A stretch of DNA of 64,000 nt, taken from Candidatus Sumerlaeales bacterium (GTDB lineage: Bacteria; Sumerlaeota; Sumerlaeia; Sumerlaeales; Sumerlaeaceae). The position numbers and the translations under genes were made by a program. The notes under the pieces were generated by a model, which searched no databases, was not told where the DNA came from, and saw nothing but the letters and a program-made list of their open reading frames with translations. The stretch is taken from positions 64,001 through 128,000 of the forward strand of contig JBBSQY010000002.1 in assembly GCA_038243585.1 (NCBI GenBank), written 5' to 3'. Below are positions 35,417 through 46,784 of the stretch, in pieces. Numbering within the stretch: the first letter of the stretch is position 1; each line of letters begins with the position of its first letter.

Positions 35417-35953
35417 TTAGCTGCGAACCATTGAACTTAATGTGGATAAGCTGCTTTTTTCAGGAGCGTTAGATATGACTGAGAATGTACCGTCAGTTTC
35501 TAAGACGACCCCTTCTGCTTCTGTAGACGCCGAGCCACTATTTCGGAGAGCGGACAGAATTTCAGCCTCCGTTATACGGGCGCGCCGCATGTTACCTCGC
35601 AAATACTCGCCTTGATACATTAACAATGTCGGTTCCGATTTTACTAATTTCTCGAACTGCGGAAATCTGACAGAAAGCCACGAAACAACAAACTGAAGAG
35701 AAGCCAACAGCAAAAATGCCAGGATTCCCTCTAGAATCGCAACATCTTTAGATAGCACGATAGTAGCCAAAGTAGAGCCTAGGGCGACCGTTACCACAAG
35801 ATCGAAAGCGTTCATTTTAGAAAGCGTTCGTTTTCCAAAGGTACGCAACACAGTGACTAGTGCAACGTAGCTTACAGATCCAGCAATCAAAACACGAAGC
35901 AGTCCATACCATGAATCAAAAAGCATACTTGGCAGCGAATCAGGTAACTCCAT
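35417..35953 (-). CDS. DUF421 (YetF-like) membrane protein
   Basis: GKRTLSKMNAFDLVVTVALGSTLA, VVLETDGTFSVI. Confidence 0.92.
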   Translation of the reverse strand: MELPDSLPSMLFDSWYGLLRVLIAGSVSYVALVTVLRTFGKRTLSKMNAFDLVVTVALGSTLATIVLSKDVAILEGILAFLLLASLQFVVSWLSVRFPQFEKLVKSEPTLLMYQGEYLRGNMRRARITEAEILSALRNSGSASTEAEGVVLETDGTFSVISNAPEKSSLSTLSSMVRS

Positions 35954-36053
35954 ATTGCGATGTCTCCTTCTGATCGAGCAGCTTCGGGCCTATGCAAAGG
36001 AACAGTAACGCGTCTGGTAAGGCTGTAAACTATTGATCTCAATGGGTTTGAAT

Positions 36054-36077
36054 TTGGTAGCGACGAGTGGAGTTGAA
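36054..36077 (-). repeat. att direct repeat (duplicated 3' end of tRNA-Met), distal copy
   Basis: TTGGTAGCGACGAGTGGAGTTGAA, identical to 46581-46604. Confidence 0.95.
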
Positions 36078-36187
36078 GGATTCGTCGTGGTATTGATACC
36101 ATTAGACATACGCCCTATATATGGCTACTACACTCAATTTACATCCAATCTATTATAGTAGTAGTATCAAACAAATTCCCTTCTATA

Positions 36188-36251
36188 GCCACATATACGC
36201 CTTAGAGACTTTACCCTATTTACCCTGTTTACCCTGTTCTAAAAACAATGC
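36188..36251. repeat. Sub-terminal imperfect inverted repeat, left copy
   Basis: CACATATACGCCTTAGAGACTTTACCCTATTTACCCTGTTTACCCTGTT aligns to the reverse complement of 46379-46442. Confidence 0.8.
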
Positions 36252-37385
36252 CAGCCGGTTAATGACGACGCGCCTTAGCCGGTCCGGATCCATAAGCTCC
36301 GCATAATGCTTATCTGTCATCCCTGCCGGTGCATGGCCTATATAAGCGCCATAGTCTGACAATGCGACGTCGGCCTTTACGCATAGGTTAACGAATGTTT
36401 TTCTAACGTCCTTCGGATCCATGTCGGCGTATGCGGGAATGTCGAAATCCGCCGCCACGCTATTGAGTAGCCGGCGCAGGCTTAATCCAACGCTGTGGTG
36501 GGTCGCGTCAAATCCCTCGGTGTTCGTGACTACCAGCGCCTCAGGGGCCATCCTAGACAGCTCAGCGGCCATCCATGCAGAGACTGCCGGCAGGATAGGA
36601 ATGGATCGCGCACGATACTTGTTTTTCGACAGCTTAATGGATAGCATATTGCTTGTGAAATCGAAGTCGCCGACGCGCAGGCGGATAATTTCTTTAATGT
36701 TACACCCTACCAAACAGCCTAGAACAACAGCCCGTGGGATCGCACGGTTGACGCGCATATTAGCGCATCCCCATAAAAGCGCCACCTGGTCAGCGTTTAT
36801 GTAGTTTTTCTCCGGTGTGGATTCATCGGTTAAAAATCCGCTCTGGATTACCAGGGGATAGTACCGGCGCGGATCTGATCGTGCCTGGTTCTTTGCCGTC
36901 ATAGTCAGAACGCCGATGTAGTGCCGTATGCTCTTTGGCTTTAATCCCTGGTCATGTAGAAATTTGACATAATCCTGTGCTACCGCGCCCGTGACTTTTT
37001 CCCAATATGATATGTTGGGGCCATCACCTTCTAACCAGTTTATGAAGTATTTTTCAAACCTGCGAAGATCCGCACGACGGTCATCTGTTTTGGCTCTGGC
37101 GTGCGTAATGGCTTTTCTGATAGCGTCGCCGATTAGGTCGCCGTCCATCCGGTCCATAACATGAGAAAAGCGGGAGCCTAGAATGTCCCTAAGCTCCCGC
37201 GCCATCTTCTTCACTTCATCCGGCAGGGTAATTCCTGCCAGTTGCTTTTCCGTCTCCGCTTTTATGCCGGTGCTCTTCGACAGCCGTTTACCGGCAGTAT
37301 CACGATAAACTAAATAGTAGCGCTTATCACTACTCTGGATCCTTATAGTAACGGCTCCGATTTTTTCCACTGTTCGCAGGGTCAT
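36216..37385 (-). CDS. Tyrosine recombinase / integrase
   Basis: IIRLRVGDFDF, SKNKYRARSIP, DVRKTF, IGHAPAGMTDKHY; adjacent to the att repeat. Confidence 0.9.
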   Translation of the reverse strand: MTLRTVEKIGAVTIRIQSSDKRYYLVYRDTAGKRLSKSTGIKAETEKQLAGITLPDEVKKMARELRDILGSRFSHVMDRMDGDLIGDAIRKAITHARAKTDDRRADLRRFEKYFINWLEGDGPNISYWEKVTGAVAQDYVKFLHDQGLKPKSIRHYIGVLTMTAKNQARSDPRRYYPLVIQSGFLTDESTPEKNYINADQVALLWGCANMRVNRAIPRAVVLGCLVGCNIKEIIRLRVGDFDFTSNMLSIKLSKNKYRARSIPILPAVSAWMAAELSRMAPEALVVTNTEGFDATHHSVGLSLRRLLNSVAADFDIPAYADMDPKDVRKTFVNLCVKADVALSDYGAYIGHAPAGMTDKHYAELMDPDRLRRVVINRLALFLEQGKQGK

Positions 37386-37617
37386 GCTTTTTTTGTTTCA
37401 TCCTGACTGGTTTTAAGTCAATACTGGTTTTGGGATGGAGCAGGCTTTCCACTCTCTGCCGGCCTATTTCGTCCAAATAGTGAATGATGGTCCCGCCCCA
37501 ATACCTGCCCCGAATGGTAGCCAGGGGCGCACATTCGTCAGCGAGTTTGCGGCCTAGCATTATTTCGAGCTCAGCAGCGCCATACCAGCGGTATGGGCGA
37601 ATGATAGGTTTAAGCAT
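37330..37617 (-). CDS. Small putative excisionase/HTH-like protein
   Basis: 95 aa, basic, overlaps the primase stop and the integrase start; function inferred from position. Confidence 0.5.
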   Translation of the reverse strand: MLKPIIRPYRWYGAAELEIMLGRKLADECAPLATIRGRYWGGTIIHYLDEIGRQRVESLLHPKTSIDLKPVRMKQKKHDPANSGKNRSRYYKDPE

Positions 37618-40123
37618 GATTCACCGCCTGGGGGTTCATGTGGTACACTCTGGCAGGCTTCTTTGCCCCTGGTGATAGAATCTCCGCTTTGCGCAGGATG
37701 TGGCGCTCTTCAAGGTAGGAAAGCGCCTCGCTGAATATGCTTTCGTTTTTCATGCGCTTCTTTACCCGGTCCCACAAATCCGTGTGGCGGATGGGTGATT
37801 CTCCGGTACTGCCGGCAAGGTTGCGGATGTGCCTAAGTGCATATTTAGCATTCGACTGGACCGGGAGCTCCTTCACGATGCCGAGCACCTGGTCCGCACG
37901 ATACAGAAAATATGTTCCCAGCGTAATCGCGCTTTTCATCGTGTCAGCCGATATGGTCCGCCCTGCGTAATCGATGGGGAATTCTGCTACGTGCAGACAC
38001 GCCGCCAGGCGAAGGATCCTGCCGGCATGTTTAGCGCCCCACTGTGCAATGTCCTCTTCGCCGAAGTCACCCGTATCTGGGCAAAGTTTAGGCATGAAGT
38101 CTTGTCTGAAAGTACGAAATTCAGCAGCAGCGCCATCACTGAGTTTTAGGACTACACCATCGTTCGTATCATTTAGCAGGTGCGTAATTGTTTTAAGGTA
38201 TTTCTGTTTTATCGCCTCATCGATGGGGGGCGCATCTACTTTATAATTTGCAAAGTCAATGCTGCCACGCAGAAGGATATAACGCTGGATTACGCCGAGC
38301 CCTGTAAATGTGTCCTGGTTTATAACGCCGTCAAATGGCTTCGGTTGCACAAACTGCACGACAGATAAAAGTGGCGCTTCAAGTGTTTCATTCCCACCTG
38401 AAACGCGGTCCCGGACGTGCCTCTCTCCGTCATAGCATTTGGGAAATAATGTGCATGAGCTTTGCCCGTTGCTATACATCCCACCCATCACGTTAAACAG
38501 TTTGGAAGACTCAGCAGAAATAACGATCCCGCTTTCCCTGTTTTGCTTTTCGCCTAATGGCTTGAATAGTGATTCTTCGGTGAAATCCTCATATATAAGC
38601 CGCCTTGCATTCCGAGCCGGTAGGGCGTCCAATTCCGTTTCAAGGTCCGTGAGCTCCATTGCCAGCATTTTACGATCCGCAGAAGTGGACGCCTTATTTA
38701 CTTTTCGCACAACAGCCGCCTGCCGTGCGACAATTATCTTTTCTTCGTTGCCGGCAAGGATCCGCTCTTGTCTGGATTCGAGCTCATTCTGTTTTCCCCA
38801 AAGAACGGCAGGTTCTGAAATGGCTTCCAATGTCGCTGATTTTGTAGCGCCTGGGGGAAAGATTACCATCACCCATAAGTTTGTGTTTTCCTGCCAGTTT
38901 GTTTTGCCTTCAATTATCACACGCCGCTGGATCGTAGACGATAACATCCCCAACGCAATGGTCGCGGTTACTTCTACCGGCACGTTCTGTTGAACAGCCA
39001 GCTCCGCGGCGAAATCTCTTAACCAGGGTGAACCGTCGAATGACTGTAAGGGGAACGTCTCCGCGTCTTCGCCAAACATCTCACCCGGCGCTACCTGGTC
39101 AATGGATATCAGCTCCGGCCATTCCTCGACCTGGGCAACCGCCGGCTCCCATAGAACAGCTACCTTTAGGCGCTCATCATAACTCATTCCTGCCGGCTCT
39201 GGGTCGGCCAGGTCTTGGCCTTTTTCCATGCCATCGGTCGGCATGATCCGCACCCGCGTATTCATCTCATAAAGGTGTGCGGCTAGTCCGTCCATCGCAT
39301 CAGTGCCAGGCTCGTCAGCATCAGGAATTAAGAAGCCTTCAGAGTTCGCCAGTAGGCGCCAGTCTGTTTTGTTCCATGTTCCGGCGCTACCTTGCCAGGT
39401 GAGTATTAACAGATCAGGCCAGCGCTCCTGTGCGGCCTCCATTGTCTTGTGCCCTTCACATATTGCCCACGGCCTGGTATCTCCAGCAGCAATCTTGTCA
39501 GCCCCATAGAACGGCTTATTGTCCAGGCTACCGTGAAAGTGCCAGCCAGCTTTATATTTTCTGCCTTCGTGGGTGTGTTCTGTGTCGTAGTAGTAGCACG
39601 GTCTGAATTGCTTACGGTCAAACACTGGGGGATTGTCCCATCGGTAGTCATAATTGAACAGCGTGCCATCAGAATTTAAGAGGGTGTAGACGTGATCCGG
39701 CTTGCCTAATTTGTAAGCTTCTTTTGGCGGTGCAATATCTTCCGGCGGGTTACGATTTATGTTGCATATATCTGCCGGCAGGGGTGTAGTTTTGGTAATC
39801 CTTGTCGGGATACTTTTAGGTTTTGCCTCGGTTCGCGCCGGGGCAATTTCTTTTTTTGGGGGGCTTGTGTTTGTCGCTGTGTTCATCCGGTGGTTGCCTC
39901 TCAAATCGTCTCTGAAGTGGTCTGCTATTTCTTTGGTGGGGCATTTCATGGTAGTGCACTTGAACATCACATCCCCAGACTTCGCGCTATCCCATACCAG
40001 GCAGTTTAAGCCGCTGCCCTTATGGATGGGGCAATTGATCCTGTAGCAGCCTTTAGCGTCCGGTCTGGTAGATCGTGCGCTGCCGTTGCCGTACCTGTCG
40101 GCAATGTCTGCCGCGTTCATCAT
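37610..40123 (-). CDS. Replication protein: Zn finger + Toprim primase + DUF3987 (YfjI-like) domain
   Basis: CPIH...C...C; ICEGHKT and PDADEPG Toprim motifs; WQENTNLW, PPGATKS, LIYEDFTEESL, DRVSGG, GVIQRY. Confidence 0.82.
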   Translation of the reverse strand: MMNAADIADRYGNGSARSTRPDAKGCYRINCPIHKGSGLNCLVWDSAKSGDVMFKCTTMKCPTKEIADHFRDDLRGNHRMNTATNTSPPKKEIAPARTEAKPKSIPTRITKTTPLPADICNINRNPPEDIAPPKEAYKLGKPDHVYTLLNSDGTLFNYDYRWDNPPVFDRKQFRPCYYYDTEHTHEGRKYKAGWHFHGSLDNKPFYGADKIAAGDTRPWAICEGHKTMEAAQERWPDLLILTWQGSAGTWNKTDWRLLANSEGFLIPDADEPGTDAMDGLAAHLYEMNTRVRIMPTDGMEKGQDLADPEPAGMSYDERLKVAVLWEPAVAQVEEWPELISIDQVAPGEMFGEDAETFPLQSFDGSPWLRDFAAELAVQQNVPVEVTATIALGMLSSTIQRRVIIEGKTNWQENTNLWVMVIFPPGATKSATLEAISEPAVLWGKQNELESRQERILAGNEEKIIVARQAAVVRKVNKASTSADRKMLAMELTDLETELDALPARNARRLIYEDFTEESLFKPLGEKQNRESGIVISAESSKLFNVMGGMYSNGQSSCTLFPKCYDGERHVRDRVSGGNETLEAPLLSVVQFVQPKPFDGVINQDTFTGLGVIQRYILLRGSIDFANYKVDAPPIDEAIKQKYLKTITHLLNDTNDGVVLKLSDGAAAEFRTFRQDFMPKLCPDTGDFGEEDIAQWGAKHAGRILRLAACLHVAEFPIDYAGRTISADTMKSAITLGTYFLYRADQVLGIVKELPVQSNAKYALRHIRNLAGSTGESPIRHTDLWDRVKKRMKNESIFSEALSYLEERHILRKAEILSPGAKKPARVYHMNPQAVNHA

Positions 40124-40350
40124 TTCTTTTCCTCAATTCTGTAATGCCCGCCGCTGTGATTCCAGCAGTGTGATAATCGGTGGTCGGGGTCGGTGAATTC
40201 CGGCTTCGTCCCGGTGCCGCCGCCGTGTCGGTGTGGCTCTCGGCAGTAGGGGCATTGTCCTATCAGCAGCCACATACTGCTGTAACGTGACCACTCAGCC
40301 CGGCAGTAGAATACCGGCAGTTGTTCCTCGGTGTCGATGGTGGTGGTCAT
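40120..40350 (-). CDS. Small Zn-binding phage-type hypothetical protein
   Basis: CPYCREPHRHGGG...HRLSHC; 4-bp overlaps with both neighbours. Confidence 0.7.
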   Translation of the reverse strand: MTTTIDTEEQLPVFYCRAEWSRYSSMWLLIGQCPYCREPHRHGGGTGTKPEFTDPDHRLSHCWNHSGGHYRIEEKK

Positions 40351-40559
40351 CGTTCGCCACCGCCCAAACCGACAGATCCGCGACGCAGGCCCCAGCGCTC
40401 CAAGGCTTTTTCCAGTGAATCAGCATCGACGCGCCGCCGGATGCGGAAAACTGGATAATCTGGAACAGTGTTATTATGATAATCTGCCCAGTGATGAAAG
40501 GCGTTTGGACTACTGAAACCGGCAAGTTTTGCCGCCGACGTGATGGAGATCAATTTCAT
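40347..40559 (-). CDS. AlpA/excisionase-like winged-HTH protein (copy 2)
   Basis: MKLISITSAAKLAGFSSPNAFHHW...RRRVDADSLEKAL; 4-bp overlap coupling. Confidence 0.65.
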   Translation of the reverse strand: MKLISITSAAKLAGFSSPNAFHHWADYHNNTVPDYPVFRIRRRVDADSLEKALERWGLRRGSVGLGGGER

Positions 40560-40774
40560 TTGGTCGCCTCCCGCTTGCCTTGCTTTGCTGCCGAACGTGC
40601 ATGTGCTTTCCGAATGATCGCCGCCTCGATAGAATCCAAATCGACCCGGTTACCACATCTCAAAATTGGATGTGCTGGAAAATCTGCCTCGTACCGGCCA
40701 AGCCAGTTGTTAAACGAGTTCTTGCTTACATGACCCGTAAAAGCCATTGCCGCGTCTAATGAAACGAAACGCAT
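40556..40774 (-). CDS. AlpA/excisionase-like winged-HTH protein (copy 1)
   Basis: RBS CAGGAGG; MRFVSLDAAMAFTGHVSKNSFNNW...GNRVDLDSIEAAI. Confidence 0.65.
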   Translation of the reverse strand: MRFVSLDAAMAFTGHVSKNSFNNWLGRYEADFPAHPILRCGNRVDLDSIEAAIIRKAHARSAAKQGKREATK

Positions 40775-40884
40775 TATGCTGCCTCCTGTGTAACTGAAAA
40801 TTAGTTTCAACCCGCATTAACGACAGTCGGCTACAGGTGGGCGCAAAATAGTTGAAATAGTTGTGGTGGGTCGCCCGGCGGGAT

Positions 40885-40916
40885 GAAAAAAGCCCCCCGG
40901 CGCTTGCCAGGGGGCA
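40885..40916 (-). terminator. Intrinsic terminator inside the element
   Basis: Minus strand GCCCCCTGGC-AAGC-GCCGGGGGGC then TTTTTT, just after the stop of ORF 40921..41136. Confidence 0.75.
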
Positions 40917-40920
40917 GTGG

Positions 40921-41136
40921 TTAAAGCGCCTCGACTTCATCCGCCACGGCTCTGAGTTTATCCGGCAGGTGATCAGCCAGGTGCCGGGCTTCCTCAATGC
41001 AAAGCCAGGTAACTTCACCGCGGACTTCCAGGGCAACCAAAGGGATTCCCCCACGGTACTCGACATAAACTTCAATCCCGTGATCTTTGAAAACATCTTC
41101 GCCGGTGAAAACAGGTCGCGTGGTGGTGGCGGTCAT
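40921..41136 (-). CDS. Hypothetical protein (71 aa)
   Basis: 4-bp overlap with the upstream ORF; followed by a terminator. Confidence 0.65.
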   Translation of the reverse strand: MTATTTRPVFTGEDVFKDHGIEVYVEYRGGIPLVALEVRGEVTWLCIEEARHLADHLPDKLRAVADEVEAL

Positions 41137-41468
41137 AGCGCTACCGCTGTGAAAAACAGATCGGCATCAGCGTCGCGCTTCTCTATGTCATCGCGAAATT
41201 CGCACATTGATTTCAATGCGGTATCACGTCCGCTAACTACGGCATTATAGTAGTCGCTTAAGTCTTCCGAATCCATCAGCGGAATTCTAATCTGGCGAAA
41301 CAGATCATACAGAATCGTGGCAATGGGTGCAAACTTTGCCAGCATCTGCTCTTTTTCTTCCCGTGAAAAAACTGCTGAATCTATCACGATAAACTCAGGA
41401 CGTCCGAAATCAATCTGACTTTCGTTCTCTCTGTGGGTAACGGGGTTTGTTGCGTTAATCGTGGACAT
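41133..41468 (-). CDS. Hypothetical protein (111 aa)
   Basis: RBS GAAAGG upstream; first gene after the structured leader. Confidence 0.65.
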   Translation of the reverse strand: MSTINATNPVTHRENESQIDFGRPEFIVIDSAVFSREEKEQMLAKFAPIATILYDLFRQIRIPLMDSEDLSDYYNAVVSGRDTALKSMCEFRDDIEKRDADADLFFTAVAL

Positions 41469-41640
41469 AAAAAAATCAACCTTTCGATACTTCGTGGTTG
41501 ACGGAGACTGACACGCACCTTCAGGAATGCGTATAGGTCATTCGGTGTGCAATCACCGTCTTGACTCAGGCCCTGGGTTGCGCTGAACACGCTTCCTGGG
41601 GCCGCTTATTTATCCGGCATGGTCTTACTGCCGGGCGTTG
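41469..41640 (-). promoter_or_regulatory. Structured leader / attenuator-like region
   Basis: Series of hairpins ending in TCAACC...GGTTGA-TTTTTTT immediately before ATG 41468. Confidence 0.5.
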
Positions 41641-41682
41641 GCAAGAGAAATCGACATCACGGCGCGATTCCAGCCACTCTGA

Positions 41683-41859
41683 GCCACTTTAGCAGTTGCC
41701 TGCGTGTGTTTGCACCGTCGGCACATGAACGAAAGCCAGCGGGCAATGATTGGCGCGAAGATCGCCAATATGGTGCGGGGTGAAAATCAGCATACGCAAA
41801 TTTGCGGAACCATATCCCAATCCGACGCCGCTGAACATCATATCCCCATCACTTCATGA
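41683..41859 (+). pseudogene. Fragment of a phage ParB-like/methyltransferase-associated HTH gene, opposite to element transcription
   Basis: The plus frame reads LHRRHMNESQRAMIGAKIANMVRGENQHTQICGTISQSDAAE, bounded by stops at 41680-41682 and 41857-41859. Confidence 0.6.
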
Positions 41860-43331
41860 CCTGGATTCCGTTCATTCAGCGTGAAGTTAATCGTGGATTC
41901 CTGCCCGGCGCGTCCGGTATTGGCCCGGTTGGCGGCTTGCGTCGCGTGAATATCCTCATTCGACATCCCGCCTCCCTGCAACGCACCAGCACCGAATTTT
42001 GCAACCATGTCAGCCTGTAGCTTTTTATCTTTCGTGGCATCCATCGCCGTTTTACCATGCGCCCTTAACCAGTTGTCCACGACGGCATTTGTGGAAATAG
42101 CTGTCTGGTTCATCGGGTTGGCGCGGTCGCTGTCGGCCGGGTACCGCGCCGTTGTCTTCGCATCATGAGCCGCTACCTTGTCACGGTAGCCCGTTTCATT
42201 CGCAGCAAATCCAGCCGCTTTTTCGCGCGCTTTTGCAGCCATCTCATCCGCGCCGAATAAGTCATAGACATTAGCCGCAAGATTCTCCGACTTGCCCATA
42301 ACACTATTATTAAACGCCCCGGCTTTGTTGTCCAGGTTCTTAATGTCACCGGCTTTTTCAGACATCGAGGAAACCAGCGCCGCAGCATTTACAGCAGCGG
42401 TGCCCAGGAAGTCAGAAAACGCCTTCGCGTCTTGCCCCATCTCTGCCCAATCAATGCTTTTGATCGTGCCGAACAGGTCTTTGGCGCTGTCTGCAATGTT
42501 CTCTCCAAATGCTTTGGTAAACTCGTCAACACCCATCTTCGCGTCACCGCTGATATACTGCACGAAGTCCACCAATTCGCCTTTAATGACATCAAACAAG
42601 GGAGCCGTCGACGCCTGCTTCATGTTATCGAAGAATGATCCCGCCGTGCTGGATAGCCCTTCCCATGTCGACGCCATCTGCATAACCAGTTCAGGCCCCG
42701 CGCCCATTTGTTTCAGTGCAGCATTGATCAGCTCCATACCCTCGAGGCCCTGGGCTTTTAATTCTTTTATAACACTACGAGATATATCAAACCGGCTTTG
42801 TAAACTTACATAGTCCCCGCCCATAGCCTCACGGATAGAGAATGCAGCACCTTCAAGCCCCTGCGCCGGATTAAGCGCCGCCAGAACTTCCGCAGTCTTA
42901 ACCAACTTCATCAGCTCTTCGCGTGAACCCTTCGCGCTGGAAATCAGCGCTTTGCCCGCTGTGATCATCTCGCCGGTGTCGAACGGCGTAACGTCAGCTT
43001 CCGTGCGAAGATCCATTACAATCTGTTTTGCAAGCGCCGCGTCCTTCGTAAACGCTGTAAACGTCGCTGTGGCCTGCTCAATCGAACTGTTGAGCGCCAA
43101 CCCATCTTTCACCATGGAACCAAACGCGACACCCGTAGCAGCCGCCGCAACACCCGCAGCAACGCCCATCCCGGCCAGAACCTTCGCAGCCGGTGCAAAC
43201 GCTTTCGCCACAGCCCGGCCTTCAGTCATTGCGTTATTCTTAAACCGGGTGAAACCTGTTTGCGCGCTCACTATACCCGCGCGAAATTCGGCGGCGTCTA
43301 ATTTAACTTTTGCTGTGACTTCTGCGCTCAT
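41838..43331 (-). CDS. Short tail tape-measure-like protein (497 aa)
   Basis: N-terminal VTAKVKLDAAEF; SIEQATATF...EADVTPFDTGEMITAGKAL (tape-measure N-terminal motif); STWEGLSST; Ala/Gly-rich helical composition. Confidence 0.8.
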   Translation of the reverse strand: MSAEVTAKVKLDAAEFRAGIVSAQTGFTRFKNNAMTEGRAVAKAFAPAAKVLAGMGVAAGVAAAATGVAFGSMVKDGLALNSSIEQATATFTAFTKDAALAKQIVMDLRTEADVTPFDTGEMITAGKALISSAKGSREELMKLVKTAEVLAALNPAQGLEGAAFSIREAMGGDYVSLQSRFDISRSVIKELKAQGLEGMELINAALKQMGAGPELVMQMASTWEGLSSTAGSFFDNMKQASTAPLFDVIKGELVDFVQYISGDAKMGVDEFTKAFGENIADSAKDLFGTIKSIDWAEMGQDAKAFSDFLGTAAVNAAALVSSMSEKAGDIKNLDNKAGAFNNSVMGKSENLAANVYDLFGADEMAAKAREKAAGFAANETGYRDKVAAHDAKTTARYPADSDRANPMNQTAISTNAVVDNWLRAHGKTAMDATKDKKLQADMVAKFGAGALQGGGMSNEDIHATQAANRANTGRAGQESTINFTLNERNPGHEVMGI

Positions 43332-43346
43332 AACGAATTACCTTTC

Positions 43347-43490
43347 AAAATAAAAATGCCGCCTGGGGCAGAGGGATCCCAGGCGGCGATTCGCGGGGAA
43401 ACGAGCGTAAACCCGCGAAGATAAAATAAGTTGGACGACGGCTAACCCTCGCCGATTAGCCGCCGCCCGCTCTTGACGGTTTCCCATCAA
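43347..43490 (-). ncRNA. Cluster of four hairpins; the last is an intrinsic terminator upstream of the TMP gene
   Basis: Stems at 43473-43490 (GAAA loop), 43433-43468, 43390-43419 and 43358-43387, followed by ATTTTTATTTT. Confidence 0.5.
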
Positions 43491-43496
43491 ACTTTG

Positions 43497-43676
43497 TTAC
43501 CGCCTGCGTACCAGGTCAGCCAATGGATCAGGCGACCTTGCATTGTCCTGGACGCGCTGGGTGTCGATATCCGTGCCCGCGCCCAACGAGGATAAACTCG
43601 AAAATCGCTGGACAGGTTCCGCCGATTCGTCATCAGCAGGTTTTGGCTCTTCTATGTCTTGGTAAAAATCTCTCAT
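43497..43676 (-). CDS. Unannotated 59-aa acidic protein, putative mini-scaffold
   Basis: ATG 43676 with GGAAAG upstream; MRDFYQDIEEPKPADDESAEPVQRFSSLSSLGAGTDIDTQRVQDNARSPDPLADLVRRR*; shorter than any ORF in the track. Confidence 0.65.
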   Translation of the reverse strand: MRDFYQDIEEPKPADDESAEPVQRFSSLSSLGAGTDIDTQRVQDNARSPDPLADLVRRR

Positions 43677-43687
43677 AATTTAATCTT

Positions 43688-43837
43688 TCCGAGTAGACGG
43701 ACGCCTCTTCCAAGACGCCCGCCCAACCCTATTTCGGAGCTATGGACGCAACGACAACGGCCATATTTTGACCGCCGGGCTACGCGGTTGAAGGTGTGCC
43801 CGGCGGCCTGATTCGTTCGCAGCAGGCAAGCGAATCA
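43688..43837 (-). ncRNA. Cluster of hairpins downstream of the capsid gene
   Basis: Stems at 43809-43837, 43770-43808, 43741-43765 and 43688-43738 (14-bp G-U-rich stem, GGAA loop). Confidence 0.5.
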
Positions 43838-43844
43838 AACGTGA

Positions 43845-44855
43845 TTACGGAGTCTCATCAGCGCTTATAAGGATAGAAGCCGGATAGCGGTCAGCCTCTA
43901 ACGGCTGTGCCACTGTGACCGGGTTCGCCGTACAAAAGCCAATTCGCGCGACCGCTTTAATTGCGATAGAGTCAGCTTGCATGAGATTCAGCATAATGTT
44001 TCCCGCCAAATCTTGGATCACGCCATCTTTGTGAACGCTGATATGGAGTTCCTCACGGACGCCCACCAGGTGTTTTGTGCGGTCGAACATGATCATTTCA
44101 ATGTCGGACGCGTCGGGGTTCTGTGGCGGGAAAACTCCGTCGACCCCGAAGGAAATTTCACGACCAAACAACCGGCCTTCCAGTGCCTCGCCGCTCTGAA
44201 GTTCCTCGGGAATGAAAAGCGGGCGTCCGAGCGTATCGGTTTCCGACATTAAATCGTACTCGAACCCCGGCCTAGCGATAGCGCCATTTAACTGGAAACC
44301 ATCCCGGCGCGACATCTTTAGCACGTTCATAATGTCCGTGCGTAGACCACCATTAGCCGCCGCCGTGTCGATAACCGTCACGTTACCGGCGCTCATCGCA
44401 CCAGCAGCAACATGAGCCGGCCAGACAATCGGCTTTTCAATTCCGAAGAAAATTGCCTTATCAATTGCCATCGCGATACTCTGGGCAATCGCCGGAATTA
44501 TTTCTTCCGTGAGATTGATCCCTCCAGCCTGAATGTCAGACATCAGCCGGCGCGGAAATGGTATGATGACGGCAATGTCGGCCACGTTCATGTCAATATT
44601 GGCCCATGATACATCGCTCGTCTGGATAAGCCGGGTATCATCTTCAGGTGTGCCGGTTTGGGTTAGCCAATAAGATTTCGGCAGCGCCGTCATAACCGGG
44701 AAAGATTTGTTCTGCGTCAAAATTGGAACGTGCTTGAAGAACCGCAATGCGGCCGACTGTTGCGTCGCCATCTTGAAAATTTTGTTGGAATGTTCGCATG
44801 GAACAAGGCCACCGGCAGAGGTTGCGTTGCGGTCTGTGATATCGTTGAAAGCCAT
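43845..44855 (-). CDS. Phage major capsid protein (HK97 fold, no delta domain)
   Basis: GGLVP..SNKIF, FPVMTALPKSYW, IAVIIPF, AIDKAIFFG..KP..WP, NLMQADSIAIKAVARIGF; RBS TAAGGAG. Confidence 0.9.
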   Translation of the reverse strand: MAFNDITDRNATSAGGLVPCEHSNKIFKMATQQSAALRFFKHVPILTQNKSFPVMTALPKSYWLTQTGTPEDDTRLIQTSDVSWANIDMNVADIAVIIPFPRRLMSDIQAGGINLTEEIIPAIAQSIAMAIDKAIFFGIEKPIVWPAHVAAGAMSAGNVTVIDTAAANGGLRTDIMNVLKMSRRDGFQLNGAIARPGFEYDLMSETDTLGRPLFIPEELQSGEALEGRLFGREISFGVDGVFPPQNPDASDIEMIMFDRTKHLVGVREELHISVHKDGVIQDLAGNIMLNLMQADSIAIKAVARIGFCTANPVTVAQPLEADRYPASILISADETP

Positions 44856-44946
44856 GAAAGTGGCTCCTTAATAGGGAGATCGCGGGAGGAATGGAATAGC
44901 CTATCAGTTACCTGTCAGCCATGACGTTTCAACCGCGTCGCCTTTA

Positions 44947-45459
44947 TTAACGACAGCTTGCTTCCAGGTCGCTCCCAATAATCCGATTTTGCATCATATC
45001 TGATAGTATTTCCGGCTGTGCAAATAAAGCCGTCCCGAAATCCTGTAGGCTTGCGAAAAGAGCACCCTCACGACGCCACGCACGACGCCGCATTTTCAGA
45101 ATATCCATCGCCTTATTTTTCGCGGATCCGAGAAAAAACGAATTCACGCTGCCGCTAAATTCAAACCCGGCAACCGGTAACCCGGTTCGCGGATTGAGAC
45201 GCCGGCATTGTTTAGGTTTTGCGCTCTCGAGTAGGTGCATCAAAATTTCATTTCGTGCGTCGTCTTGATCCTCCTGCGACAGTGAAACCTTGTACGCCCA
45301 TTGCTTCGCCAGTGGTAGCAGCAGGGCCGCAACGTCAGCCAGCAGGAATTCATTCTCTGGATCCCGCCGCAGCGCCACAATAGCGGCCTCCAGGTCAATG
45401 GCCTGTTGTGCGAAATCAATCACTGCGTGATGGCTACGGGGAGCGCAAACAGCAGGCAT
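44947..45459 (-). CDS. Sigma-70 region-2-like protein lacking region 4
   Basis: EDQDDARNEILMHLLE...FSGSVNSFFLGSAKNKAMDILKMRRR; RBS AGAAAGGA before ATG 45459. Confidence 0.6.
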   Translation of the reverse strand: MPAVCAPRSHHAVIDFAQQAIDLEAAIVALRRDPENEFLLADVAALLLPLAKQWAYKVSLSQEDQDDARNEILMHLLESAKPKQCRRLNPRTGLPVAGFEFSGSVNSFFLGSAKNKAMDILKMRRRAWRREGALFASLQDFGTALFAQPEILSDMMQNRIIGSDLEASCR

Positions 45460-45540
45460 AAGCAAATCCTTTCTTGTGTAAATGCTTACCCGTACCCGCC
45501 GCTTTCATGCAAGGTGAATCCGACAGTCAAGAGAAAAAAA

Positions 45541-46146
45541 TTATGCTTTCACCGGCGGGGCATCGCCCATCTTTTCAGGCATATAGTCGCTGAAGTCCAT
45601 CGTATCGCCGACGCATCCAGTTTCTACCCACTCCCTGGGCGGCAAACCAACATGGACGAACGTGATCGGGGTCTCCGTGTCATCCTTCGCCACAAGTTCC
45701 TGGTAGGCCTGAAAATCTTTGCTCAGCCGTTGGTCATAACTAATCCGGGCCTCGAGTAGCTTCCGTTTTTCCGATGTGTAAAAGCGCTTATCCGCCATTG
45801 TCTCAGCATCAGCCAGGCATTGATCAAGACGAAGGGCCTCCACATCCAGCGCCACAAGCGTGTTTTCGTGCCGATCCAGCATGAAAGCCAGCCGCGCCTT
45901 GCCACTGGATAGACTCTCAGCCAGGTTCACCGGATCGCCCTCGGCAATAGCCAGAACAATCGCCGGTGTATGCGAATGTACCCTTGCCGTAGTCTTACCC
46001 ACCGGCGGCTCATCGCCACGAACCCGCGCACGGTACCGCCGTTTACTGTCAGCCCGGCATTTCTTGCAATCGCCCGCAGCATAACGCTCTGAGGTGCCAC
46101 ACTTCGCGCAAATCTTGTCATTATCCATGCCAGGTATTAACGCCAT
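45541..46146 (-). CDS. Zn-finger / coiled-coil protein, possible terminase small subunit
   Basis: CAKC...CKKC, basic patch, coiled-coil core, C-terminal beta strand PITFVHVG; first gene of the structural module. Confidence 0.5.
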   Translation of the reverse strand: MALIPGMDNDKICAKCGTSERYAAGDCKKCRADSKRRYRARVRGDEPPVGKTTARVHSHTPAIVLAIAEGDPVNLAESLSSGKARLAFMLDRHENTLVALDVEALRLDQCLADAETMADKRFYTSEKRKLLEARISYDQRLSKDFQAYQELVAKDDTETPITFVHVGLPPREWVETGCVGDTMDFSDYMPEKMGDAPPVKA

Positions 46147-46378
46147 TCGTACCCACCGGCCACGCTGTACCCATGATTTTCACAAAAAGCCAAAAATCTC
46201 CCGTTTCAGTGCTAGCGAGCATTGGCCTATACCAGCTACAGGGGTGCCCCGGCCTTGTAATAGTTACAACCGTTGTGTGGTGCCCTGTGGCGGCTGTGGT
46301 GGTGGTGCTACTCGGATCAGTGCCACGCGGTGCGGTGTGTTGTGTGTGTGGTGGTGCGCCGGCAGTGGTGGTTGACGT

Positions 46379-46442
46379 GCGTTGGTTTAGCAATAGGGTA
46401 AATAGGGTAAACAGGGGAACTCTCTTAAAGCGTATATGTGAC
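46379..46442. repeat. Sub-terminal imperfect inverted repeat, right copy
   Basis: AATAGGGTAAATAGGGTAAACAGGGGAACTCTCTTAAAGCGTATATGTG; its reverse complement matches 36188-36251. Confidence 0.8.
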
Positions 46443-46581
46443 ATCACCACATACGCCCTACACCCAGTTTACACCCAGTTGTTCGTGGTGTGGTGGGTGT
46501 ATCTTGCCTGTACCTTCAATGTGGTTAAAGTGGTTATCGCTTGATATAGCTGGGGATCAGGTAGTTGGGTGATAGGGAAAT

Positions 46582-46658
46582 TGGTAGCGACGAGTGGAGT
46601 TGAACCACTGACCTAAGGGTTATGAGTCCTTCGCTCTAACCACCTGAGCTACGCCGCC
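46582..46658 (-). tRNA. tRNA-Met(CAT), elongator; integration target
   Basis: GGCGGCGTAGCTCAGGTGGTTAGAGCGAAGGACTCATAACCCTTAGGTCAGTGGTTCAACTCCACTCGTCGCTACCA; G2-C71 and C3-G70 favour Met over Ile2. Confidence 0.93.
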
Positions 46659-46708
46659 CCGTGGTTTGAAGTACGGTTCTGCACTTCAAAACATTCTTGC
46701 AAAAAAAG

Positions 46709-46784
<76 letters not shown>

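Follow-up and report, generated by a model that had tools for sequence, protein, structure and literature searches.

The window analysed here is a stretch of 64,000 nucleotides (64 kb; positions 64,001 to 128,000 of contig JBBSQY010000002.1, assembly GCA_038243585.1) from an uncultured soil bacterium, a Candidatus Sumerlaeales bacterium, whose assembly measures 3.43 Mb, is divided into 99 contigs and is 89.7% complete. Downstream of the 3' end of a tRNA-Met gene it contains an element of 10,527 bp that carries genes for an integrase, a primase-helicase, a major capsid protein (MCP) and a protein of the tape-measure (TMP) family, and that was described in an earlier note, made from the letters alone, as a phage satellite with its own capsid and tape measure. 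ARAGORN places the integration target, tRNA-Met(CAT), on the minus strand at 46582..46658; another tRNA-Met gene lies in tandem with it at 46709-46784. A repeat search returned a 28-nt pair with one mismatch (36050-36077 and 46577-46604), within which exact 24-bp direct repeats lie at 36054..36077 and 46581..46604, with a start-to-start spacing of 10,527 bp. By our own arithmetic, about 1e-6 exact repeats of this length are expected by chance within 15 kb, so that the pair is far beyond chance. The right attachment (att) copy provides the last 23 nt, and hence the 3' end, of the tRNA-Met gene, which is intact; the left copy, at the integrase-proximal end, duplicates these final bases.

All the genes of the element are co-oriented on the minus strand. 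Starting from the tRNA, their order is orf201, orf172, the MCP gene, orf59, the TMP-like gene, orf50, orf111 and orf71, followed by two paralogous genes for proteins of 84 and 70 aa, a gene for a 76-aa Cys/His protein, the primase-helicase gene, orf95 and the integrase gene (int). Seven of the junctions are overlaps (five of 4 bp, one of 8 bp between orf95 and the primase gene, and one of 56 bp between int and orf95), and no frame is broken. The att repeats at tRNA-Met, the co-oriented gene order and the tight coupling of intact frames had all been claimed in the earlier note, and they are confirmed by the repeat search together with ARAGORN, by the list of open reading frames (ORFs) and by the overlapping junctions, respectively. 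A comparison of 15 ORFs with Pfam, PHROGs and NCBIfam gave a significant direct family match for three, namely the integrase, the primase-helicase and the MCP, all of which had been correctly named beforehand.

The capsid gene, the tape-measure gene and the missing parts

The MCP gene (43845..44855, minus strand) encodes a full-length HK97-type protein of 336 aa that matches PF05065 (E 1.6e-11, 44.6 bits against a cut-off of 24.2), phrog_10 (4.5e-27) and TIGR01554 (9.7e-13, 48 bits against a cut-off of 27.5). Because the match to TIGR01554 spans model positions 106-356 of 385, the protein is devoid of the N-terminal delta or scaffolding domain. Residues 1-329 align end to end with phage MCPs at 31-37% identity, and the relatives at this distance (160 loci) stand in ordinary modules with the order TerS-TerL-portal-scaffold-MCP (TerS and TerL being the small and large terminase subunits). 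Closer relatives (P0017-P0019; 48-53% identity) are also full length and come from short assembled contigs. Neither a TMP relative nor any of the element's remaining proteins is encoded at any of the 160 loci. Contigs of 8-16 kb that carry an MCP relative were considered as possible small elements and rejected, since they are ordinary phage fragments with the same order from TerS to MCP.

The second structural gene (41838..43331, minus strand) encodes a protein of 497 aa with a TMP_3-type core at approximately residues 50-290 and a hydrophobic, Gly/Ala-rich segment at approximately residues 45-75. The evidence that it is a member of the TMP family is indirect but solid, because it is its homologues that match the TMP models. 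A large protein collection contains 14 relatives, five of which match TMP_3 (PF20155; best E 6.1e-8), and scans of genomes and viromes yielded 108 loci, 107 of them with a TMP relative by blastp, in which the conserved core lies at the start of long ORFs. The core is 44% identical (E 4e-36) to the TMP of a viral contig, L045, and 41% identical to that of a phage, L094, and residues ~77-257 align with the region of both proteins that matches TMP_3. In L045 the TMP has 715 aa, matches the PHROG tape-measure families (phrog_58, 6.2e-14) and is encoded after a tail tube gene; in L094 it is a 1,387-aa ORF (TMP_3, 4.3e-6) that comes after the genes for portal, scaffold, MCP, head completion and tail completion. 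The identity given to the 497-aa protein in the earlier note is therefore upheld by way of its homologues. A sequence search of the PDB with the TMP profile returned coiled-coil noise only and was discarded.

The 88 complete TMP ORFs among the 107 loci measure 469-2445 aa, with a median of 711. The proposal that the TMP of the element is a shortened ruler is not sustained by these lengths, given that 497 aa lies at the short end of the range but within it, and the range is that of phage contigs of 30-60 kb. Other short TMPs are found on contigs of 35 kb (L044, 493 aa) and 61 kb (L055, 514 aa). The C-terminus of the element's TMP bears an ERNPxHxVMA-like motif that it has in common with short-form relatives only. 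The motif recurs in eight diverged short forms (455-497 aa); those designated P0002-P0008 are 35-65% identical and are known only from short assembled contigs. The motif occurs in no ORF of the retrieved phage loci and thus pointed to no helper lineage. The conservation of the C-terminus among the short forms, together with the full length of the diverged relatives of both proteins, implies that the functions of MCP and TMP have been maintained. It is known that a phage tail measures approximately 0.15 nm per TMP residue, and by this rule a TMP of 497 aa would correspond to a tail of about 75 nm.

The distance between the MCP and TMP genes is 0.5 kb in the element as opposed to ~4.8 kb, with about ten intervening genes, in phage L094, which is the only one of the 107 TMP-relative loci with a related MCP. 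Around the TMP gene of the element, unlike those of phage relatives, Pfam, PHROG and NCBIfam reveal no gene for a tube, a chaperone or a distal tail protein. The sequence data that contain the element consist of one run (X1), in the form of assembled contigs, and these contigs break repeatedly between 41700 and 42750, in the 3' 60% of the TMP gene (ends at 41704, 41900, 42165, 42730 and 42750). The word depth falls to 2-7 in the same interval, a dip in contig depth that on its own does not amount to a finding. Differences between strains in the C-terminal portion of the TMP are one possible cause of the breaks.

Among the 15 ORFs of the element there is no TerL, portal, tail tube, tail tip or lysis family, and since the largest unassigned ORF has 201 aa, a portal or a TerL is not hidden among them, in agreement with what had been stated about the missing portal, TerL and tail tube. 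Together with a size of between about 7 and 20 kb, att boundaries and an integrase of its own, this absence is among the traits by which a phage satellite is generically recognised, a further one being induction, packaging and transfer only with a helper. The search was extended to the whole assembly, in which no TerL (TerL_ATPase, Terminase_6N and TerL_nuclease; PF03354, PF03237 and PF20441) and no match to Phage_portal (PF04860) or SPP1_portal (PF05133) was found. The MCP of the element is the only Phage_capsid match in the assembly, and searches with the MCP and the TMP find only themselves there. A weak TMP_3 match on contig 13 (E 0.009) was rejected, as it belongs to a RecN/SMC-type protein that lies among housekeeping genes and not in a prophage.

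Two genes separate the capsid gene from the tRNA. The first is orf201 (45541..46146, minus strand), whose product begins with a zinc ribbon (CxxC...CxxC) and continues through a basic linker into a long helical hairpin at residues 82-153; its predicted structure shows the ribbon and the hairpin with a pLDDT of 72.9. In a library of 1.84 billion proteins it has 19 relatives at E<=0.001 and 11 at E<=1e-10. A Foldseek comparison of the model with the PDB gave no match at E<=0.001, a comparison with phage scaffolds gave no similarity, and a search of the Atlas gave only unnamed clusters, below 0.9. The protein could be DNA-binding, TerS-like or scaffold-like. Its closest relative (P0023, 55% identity) and the closest relative of the MCP (P0018, 52%) are each recorded on one Logan contig with a length of 9,213 bp, and the two contigs are probably one and the same, which suggests that the linkage between orf201 and the MCP gene is conserved. 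No TMP relative is listed on any contig of 9,213 bp.

The second gene, orf172 (44947..45465, minus strand), occupies the position held by the scaffold gene in related phages. It resembles sigma-70 region 2 below threshold (PF04542, E 0.086), a resemblance that, like that of its feature look-alikes, is to be taken as a lead. It is not matched by a profile built from the scaffold genes (164-194 aa) found ahead of the MCP gene in related phages, and its single-sequence model (pLDDT 38) is unusable. The earlier note had the element supply a capsid plus a scaffold; the capsid stands, and no scaffold is recognisable, the profile matching neither orf172 nor orf201. Nor did the labels of possible TerS, sigma2-like, AlpA-like and xis-like protein that the note attached to small genes of the element find a significant family match. 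Between the MCP and TMP genes lies orf59 (43497..43676, minus strand), which has no match in Pfam, PHROGs, NCBIfam or PADLOC and may not be a real gene.

Replication and integration genes and the ends of the element

The side of the element that is distal to the tRNA is devoted to regulation, replication and integration. The last gene, int (36216..37385, minus strand), adjoins the left att copy and encodes a tyrosine integrase of 389 aa that matches phrog_1 (9.1e-22), PF00589 (9.9e-6; 25.9 bits, just below the cut-off of 27.1) and, weakly, the Xer models of NCBIfam. The primase-helicase (837 aa; 37610..40123, minus strand) combines a primase-like region at the N-terminus with a helicase-like region of the DUF3987 type, with matches to PF13148 (DUF3987, 3.9e-62), phrog_2373 (2.7e-47) and, over residues 123-306, phrog_239 (5.9e-9). 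Between these two genes and overlapping both lies orf95 (37330..37617, minus strand), which has no match in Pfam, PHROGs or NCBIfam and whose position suggests a directionality factor.

The 76-aa Cys/His-rich protein (40120..40350, minus strand) has no significant match in the same three collections. The paralogous genes for 84 and 70 aa (40347..40810, minus strand) encode proteins that are 32% identical (E 5e-13) and that, by eye, look like excisionase or AlpA-type helix-turn-helix (HTH) proteins, although Pfam gives no Phage_AlpA or HTH_17 match at E<=0.1. One contig of run X1 (depth 4.4 as opposed to ~9.5) joins 40117 to 40957 and skips 839 bp that contain the 76-, 70- and 84-aa genes, with three base differences at 40067-40070. 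This joint may represent a co-existing variant of the element in which the cassette has been deleted or replaced.

On the structural side, the small, unassigned gene orf50 (41689..41841, minus strand) overlaps the TMP stop by 4 bp. The genes orf111 (41133-41468, minus strand) and orf71 (40921-41136, minus strand), which overlap each other by 4 bp, are the last genes of the structural-side operon, and neither has a match in Pfam, PHROGs, NCBIfam or PADLOC. Beyond them, a strong hairpin resembling an intrinsic terminator (40892..40915, minus strand; 10 pairs, 9 of them G-C, and then a T run) divides the structural-side genes from those of regulation, replication and integration. Another hairpin, of 15 pairs (43433..43468, minus strand), is located directly upstream of the TMP start and may be an attenuator or a terminator between the capsid and TMP genes.

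At the left end, three tandem copies of TTTACCCTRTT (36210..36238, plus strand) overlap the end of int and are candidate arm-type sites, and copies of ATACGCCYTA lie at 36108-36117 and 36195-36204. At the right end there are two tandem copies of TTTACCCTATT (46392..46411, minus strand), inverted with respect to those of the left end, and a copy of ATACGCCCTA (46451-46460), which together form a candidate second att arm. All five exact matches to TTTACCCTRTT in the window are located at the two ends of the element; with one mismatch allowed there are 8 matches where 1.67 are expected, a number reached in none of 100 shuffles. In the same way, the three matches to ATACGCCYTA in the window are all at the ends of the element (0.12 expected; 0/100 shuffles reach 3). 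These end-confined motifs are likely to be integrase arm-type sites flanking the att core. Among the contigs of the run, a joint of 35926 to 46582 was rejected as evidence of excision, since one of its sides has 22 letters and it lies off the att core.

The tRNA is separated from the first gene by a non-coding, repeat-rich leader of 434 bp (46147..46580), which contains ACCAC-rich repeats, two copies of TACACCCAGTT and an imperfect palindrome. The leader is a candidate promoter, operator and att arm, and possibly a packaging site; a low-complexity ORF of 109 aa within it is probably not a gene. The palindrome is centred around GCGTATGTGGTGATGTCACATATACGC at 46440-46475 (minus-strand reading) and adjoins the two exact TACACCCAGTT repeats at 46459-46480, an arrangement that looks like an operator or a protein-binding site.

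The flanks of the element are chromosomal, with an MscS-BON channel and YetF on the left and DivIC, FabZ, LpxC and Skp on the right, and the G+C content is 0.49-0.55 within the element and 0.47-0.50 outside it. The right flank and the tRNA pair are syntenic in two other genomes of the same family (G007 and G008) and partly in a third (G012). The tandem tRNA-Met(CAT) pair (46582-46784) is likewise conserved in relatives (L121, L123), and gene order across relatives is conserved only on the DivIC-FabZ-LpxC-Skp side of the pair. The tRNA is a synteny break, because the neighbours on its other side differ in every relative examined (G007, G012). In G007, which is of the same genus, the genes next to the same tRNA-Met are ordinary ones, among them those for an AraC-type regulator, a kinase-sulfatase-modifying protein and a ribonucleotide reductase, and none encodes an integrase. 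As for the left flank (MscS-BON, YetF), none of the 12 other genomes of the family has a DNA match and two of the 12 have distant protein matches.

The TMP is absent from the 12 other genomes of the family, the MCP from the 72 other genomes of the class and the short-form TMP profile from the 74 other genomes of the phylum, so that the element is found in one genome only of a phylum of 75; E. coli genomes gave no DNA match to it.

A probable helper-dependent satellite and its alternatives

The interpretation that best accommodates these observations is that of an intact, integrated, helper-dependent phage satellite, and we regard it as probable, though far from secure. The tyrosine integrase would insert the element at the 3' end of tRNA-Met, which would be regenerated by the insertion, and the primase-helicase would provide for its replication. 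When a siphophage-type helper grows in the cell, the element would excise and replicate, and the helper terminase would package its DNA through the helper portal into a shell formed wholly or partly by the MCP of the element. The head would then be joined to a tail in which the tube and tip proteins of the helper are assembled around the TMP of the element. Because the MCP is devoid of a delta domain and no scaffold is recognisable, the scaffold would be contributed by the helper or by an unrecognised protein of the element. The data establish the boundaries of the element, its genes, their intact state and the lack of a portal, a TerL and a helper in the assembly. Excision, dependence on a helper and the incorporation of MCP and TMP into particles are steps that we infer, and the published satellites in which a TMP or an MCP of their own is usable lend support to them by analogy.

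A number of results weigh against this interpretation. No resident helper phage was found in the 89.7%-complete assembly of 99 contigs, so that the check for a helper prophage with a related MCP, proposed in the earlier note, came out negative; a helper may nevertheless lie in the part of the genome that the assembly lacks, or be a non-integrated phage. A joined empty site, with both flanks together, was not found in relatives, where it is not demonstrable because the left flank is not conserved. The contigs of the run contain no reliable joint at the att core that would correspond to an excision or circle junction, and the depth of the element (~8-10) compared with that of its flanks (8.8 and 11.9) gives no sign of active replication; these contigs speak neither for nor against excision. 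No TerS, cos or pac site, scaffold or tail chaperone is recognisable in the element. The 497-aa protein has no direct match in Pfam (E<=0.1), PHROG or NCBIfam, and the search for relatives of the primase, in which 8,000 candidates were scored, returned nothing but the primase itself, no other reaching E<=1e-10. The search for similar compact elements devoid of portal and TerL, also proposed in the note, yielded no syntenic sister element in the metagenome contigs scanned with the short-TMP alignment or in the viral contigs scanned with the orf201 alignment, and the lengths of the contigs that carry the closest relatives of the TMP (8,521 bp for P0002 and 11,933 bp for P0006) and of the MCP (9,213 bp) differ, so that they do not establish a joint occurrence of MCP and TMP elsewhere. 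The satellite reading of the note has thus been retained as the best one, while the helper, the excision product and the sister elements that would accompany it have not been found.

A more specific version of the satellite reading can be put forward, albeit tentatively, and we consider it possible without thinking it likely. In this version the element is a minimal satellite of two rulers, which keeps only the proteins that set dimensions, that is, the shell subunit that determines the size of the head and the tape measure that determines the length of the tail and leaves the particle together with the DNA on ejection. All other parts, among them scaffold, portal, terminase, tube and tip, would come from the helper, and the resulting chimeric particles would be sized for a genome of 10.5 kb. 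The short-form TMPs (455-497 aa), with their ERNPxHxVMA-like motif, would in that case be a satellite-specific lineage adapted to docking on the tail tip of the helper.

An alternative view is that the element is an interference island, similar to a phage-inducible chromosomal island (PICI) and transferred by a helper, whose capsid and TMP serve chiefly to derail head and tail assembly of the helper, as poison or decoy subunits, in a form of host defence. We consider this unlikely, although there is some precedent for it. The capsid gene of Gram-negative PICIs, present in 21 of 29 reference elements, is reported to be dispensable for transfer (PMC10111431), and in the satellite PLE11 the TMP is accompanied by Rta, a small protein (80 aa) directed against TMP (PMC12987554). 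The small ORFs orf50, orf111 and orf71 that lie next to the TMP gene, and the lack of a recognisable scaffold, TerS or chaperone, would also fit such a role. On the other hand, none of the 13 ORFs compared with the known defence families of PADLOC gives a match, and the MCP shows no truncation, its alignment with phage MCPs running from one end to the other. Moreover, the TMP of PLE11 is reported to be built into the virions of the satellite, so that interference and structural use are compatible with each other (PMC12987554).

It could also be argued that the element is a defective prophage, the immobile, integrase-bounded fossil of a siphophage that has lost TerL, portal, protease, connectors, tube, tip and lysis genes. 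The MCP and TMP families are indeed typical of complete siphophages, one of the short-form TMPs (P0008) is located on a contig of 33 kb (33,123 bp), and neither excision nor a helper is in evidence. Such a history is nevertheless improbable in our view, for it requires at least three separate in-frame-neutral deletions (upstream of the MCP gene, between the MCP and TMP genes, and after the TMP gene) in an element whose remaining frames are all intact and tightly coupled, whose att repeats are still identical and which has kept both clusters of arm motifs. The replication module, in addition, is a primase-helicase of the satellite type, short-form TMPs with the C-terminal motif recur in eight diverged sequences, and the full length of the MCP relatives argues for selection on the compact form.

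The weakest of the alternatives, which we hold to be very improbable, is that the element is one of the small, integrase-bearing, portal-less "mini HK97" entities, which have an MCP with or without a scaffold and would be packaged or moved in a non-canonical manner without a tailed helper: the element does fit the gene-content profile described for them, including a weak sigma-like ORF (PMC13669383), but the family matches of its MCP at E up to 0.1 are confined to phage capsids (PF05065, TIGR01554), the relatives of this MCP lie in ordinary TerL-portal-scaffold-MCP modules, a tape measure has no known role in the absence of tail tube and tip, and satellites are among the hypotheses that the authors of that study themselves put forward for these entities (PMC13669383).

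Relation to known satellites

In its combination of structural genes, the satellite proposed here resembles the EPIPs of Mycolicibacterium aichiense (Qian et al., bioRxiv Dec 2025; PMC12822802). These satellites of ~11 kb encode an MCP and a TMP together with a serine integrase, a TerS, an adaptor, a stopper and a scaffold (PMC12822802). EPIPs have no tail or lysis genes, and their particles have smaller heads and tails whose lengths are unlike those of the helper (PMC12822802). The MCP and TMP genes and the size (10.5 kb in the element) are common to both. In contrast, the integrase of the element is of the tyrosine type, a primase-helicase is present, and no TerS, adaptor, stopper or scaffold is recognised. 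The hosts of EPIPs are Actinomycetota, whereas that of the element belongs to an uncultured diderm phylum; the comparison is one of gene content, not of sequence.

The notion that a satellite can bring its own tape measure has been established for PLE11 of Vibrio cholerae, which is reported to build chimeric tails with its own TMP and hub (Mathur, Boyd et al., Nature 2026; PMC12987554). Its TMP replaces that of the helper, and PLEs also encode a tail chaperone and a baseplate hub (PMC12987554). A satellite-encoded tape measure is what the element shares with them; PLEs use the capsid protein of the helper, parasitise a myophage and combine their TMP with chaperone and hub (PMC12987554), whereas the element has its own MCP and no recognisable chaperone or hub. 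The legend of Extended Data Fig. 10 of the same paper mentions putative tmp genes in diverse putative satellites, PLE-like elements and capsid-forming PICIs (cf-PICIs), so that some cf-PICIs, which resemble the element in having their own HK97 capsid gene, also have a putative tmp (PMC12987554). A further case is that of the SUSP1 satellites of E. coli ("F5" family), integrated elements whose sole structural genes are reported to be those for a TMP and a baseplate protein (bioRxiv Oct 2026; 10.64898/2026.10.15.759431). They differ from the element, with its TMP and MCP, in that they are reported to have no capsid gene (10.64898/2026.10.15.759431).

The AlpA-type PICIs of Gram-negative bacteria are described as unidirectional elements of 10-20 kb with int, one or more small HTH regulators and a primase (Tommasini, Mageeney and Williams, 2023; PMC10111431). 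Their commonest late gene is an orphan MCP gene, found in 21 of the 29 reference elements (PMC10111431). In these PICIs int and alpA come first, whereas in the element int is last and the structural genes are the first after the tRNA; the element has no Phage_AlpA match, and its primase-helicase and orphan MCP gene are accompanied by a TMP-family gene, unlike the PICI models (PMC10111431).

The cf-PICIs encode a full head and packaging module composed of MCP, portal, protease, head-tail adaptor, TerS and HNH. Only the MCP of this module is detected in the element. P4-like satellites, in turn, have the capsid-size and regulatory genes Sid, Psu and Delta, an alpha primase and a cos site. No Pfam, PHROG or NCBIfam match to P4-type proteins is present among the 15 ORFs, and the element has an MCP, which P4 does not. 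With its 10.5 kb, the genome of the element is in the range of the T=4 capsid of P4, which is given as 11.6 kb (PMC13669383).

As regards the "twilight-zone" mini HK97 entities, they are described as genomes of ~8.75 kb that encode an MCP, an integrase, a helicase and sigma factors but neither terminase nor portal (Nat Commun 2026; PMC13669383). Tail genes are reported in 23 of 536 genomes, 20 of which have just one (PMC13669383). The integrase, the HK97 MCP, the helicase, the absence of terminase and portal and the single tail gene are therefore points of likeness (PMC13669383). The main group of these entities, however, comes from the human gut and its MCPs are enriched in encapsulins (PMC13669383), while the MCP of the element belongs to an ordinary phage family. 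They are not analysed there as satellites with MCP and TMP (PMC13669383), and the tail gene of the element is a clear member of the TMP family. A search for tape-measure terms in four supplementary files of that paper gave no further case of MCP and TMP together among the mini HK97 entities (PMC13669383).

The viral contig L045 offers a comparison of another kind. It is a complete circular IMG/VR contig of 14,303 bp, with a 127-bp terminal repeat and 71% G+C, and its genes include a serine integrase, a D5-type primase, HTH_17 and HTH_7 regulators, a tail tube and the 715-aa TMP. No MCP, TerL or portal is recognisable in it, and it looks like another TMP-carrying satellite with a different backbone. 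It resembles the element in its integrase, its primase, the 44% identical TMP core and the lack of a recognisable TerL or portal, and differs from it in the type of integrase and primase, in its tail tube gene, in the length of its TMP, in its G+C content and in that no capsid gene is recognised.

Taken together, these comparisons indicate that the element would function like the AlpA-type PICIs, the cf-PICIs, the P4-like elements and the EPIPs but belongs to none of them, since it fails the defining features that were tested. The concept itself is already published, given that there are satellite TMPs in PLE11, cf-PICIs and SUSP1, capsid together with TMP in EPIPs, capsid genes in PICIs and portal-less entities of the mini HK97 type. 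The novelty suggested in the earlier note was thus overstated, as satellites that encode a TMP, a capsid or both were published between 2023 and 2026, and the lifestyle of satellites that bring both was first described in 2025-2026. What is new in the element is a sequence-unrelated variant in an uncultured phylum of 75 genomes. No satellite with MCP and TMP only, a tyrosine integrase and a primase-helicase was found in the literature, a search that did not extend to subscription-only papers.

The element does not open a new category. If the satellite reading is true, the strategy of bringing one's own capsid and one's own TMP would reach an uncultured diderm phylum, beyond the mycobacterial EPIPs, and that of bringing one's own TMP would extend past the PLEs of Vibrio and the satellites of E. 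coli, in which the TMP is on its own. The element would be the most stripped-down form so far, with MCP and TMP and without a recognisable TerS, adaptor, scaffold or chaperone. It would also provide a short and tractable gene pair with which to study how the assembly of a helper accepts a foreign tape measure and a foreign shell subunit, and it would support the idea that the determinants of head size and tail length are the parts that satellites privatise most often.

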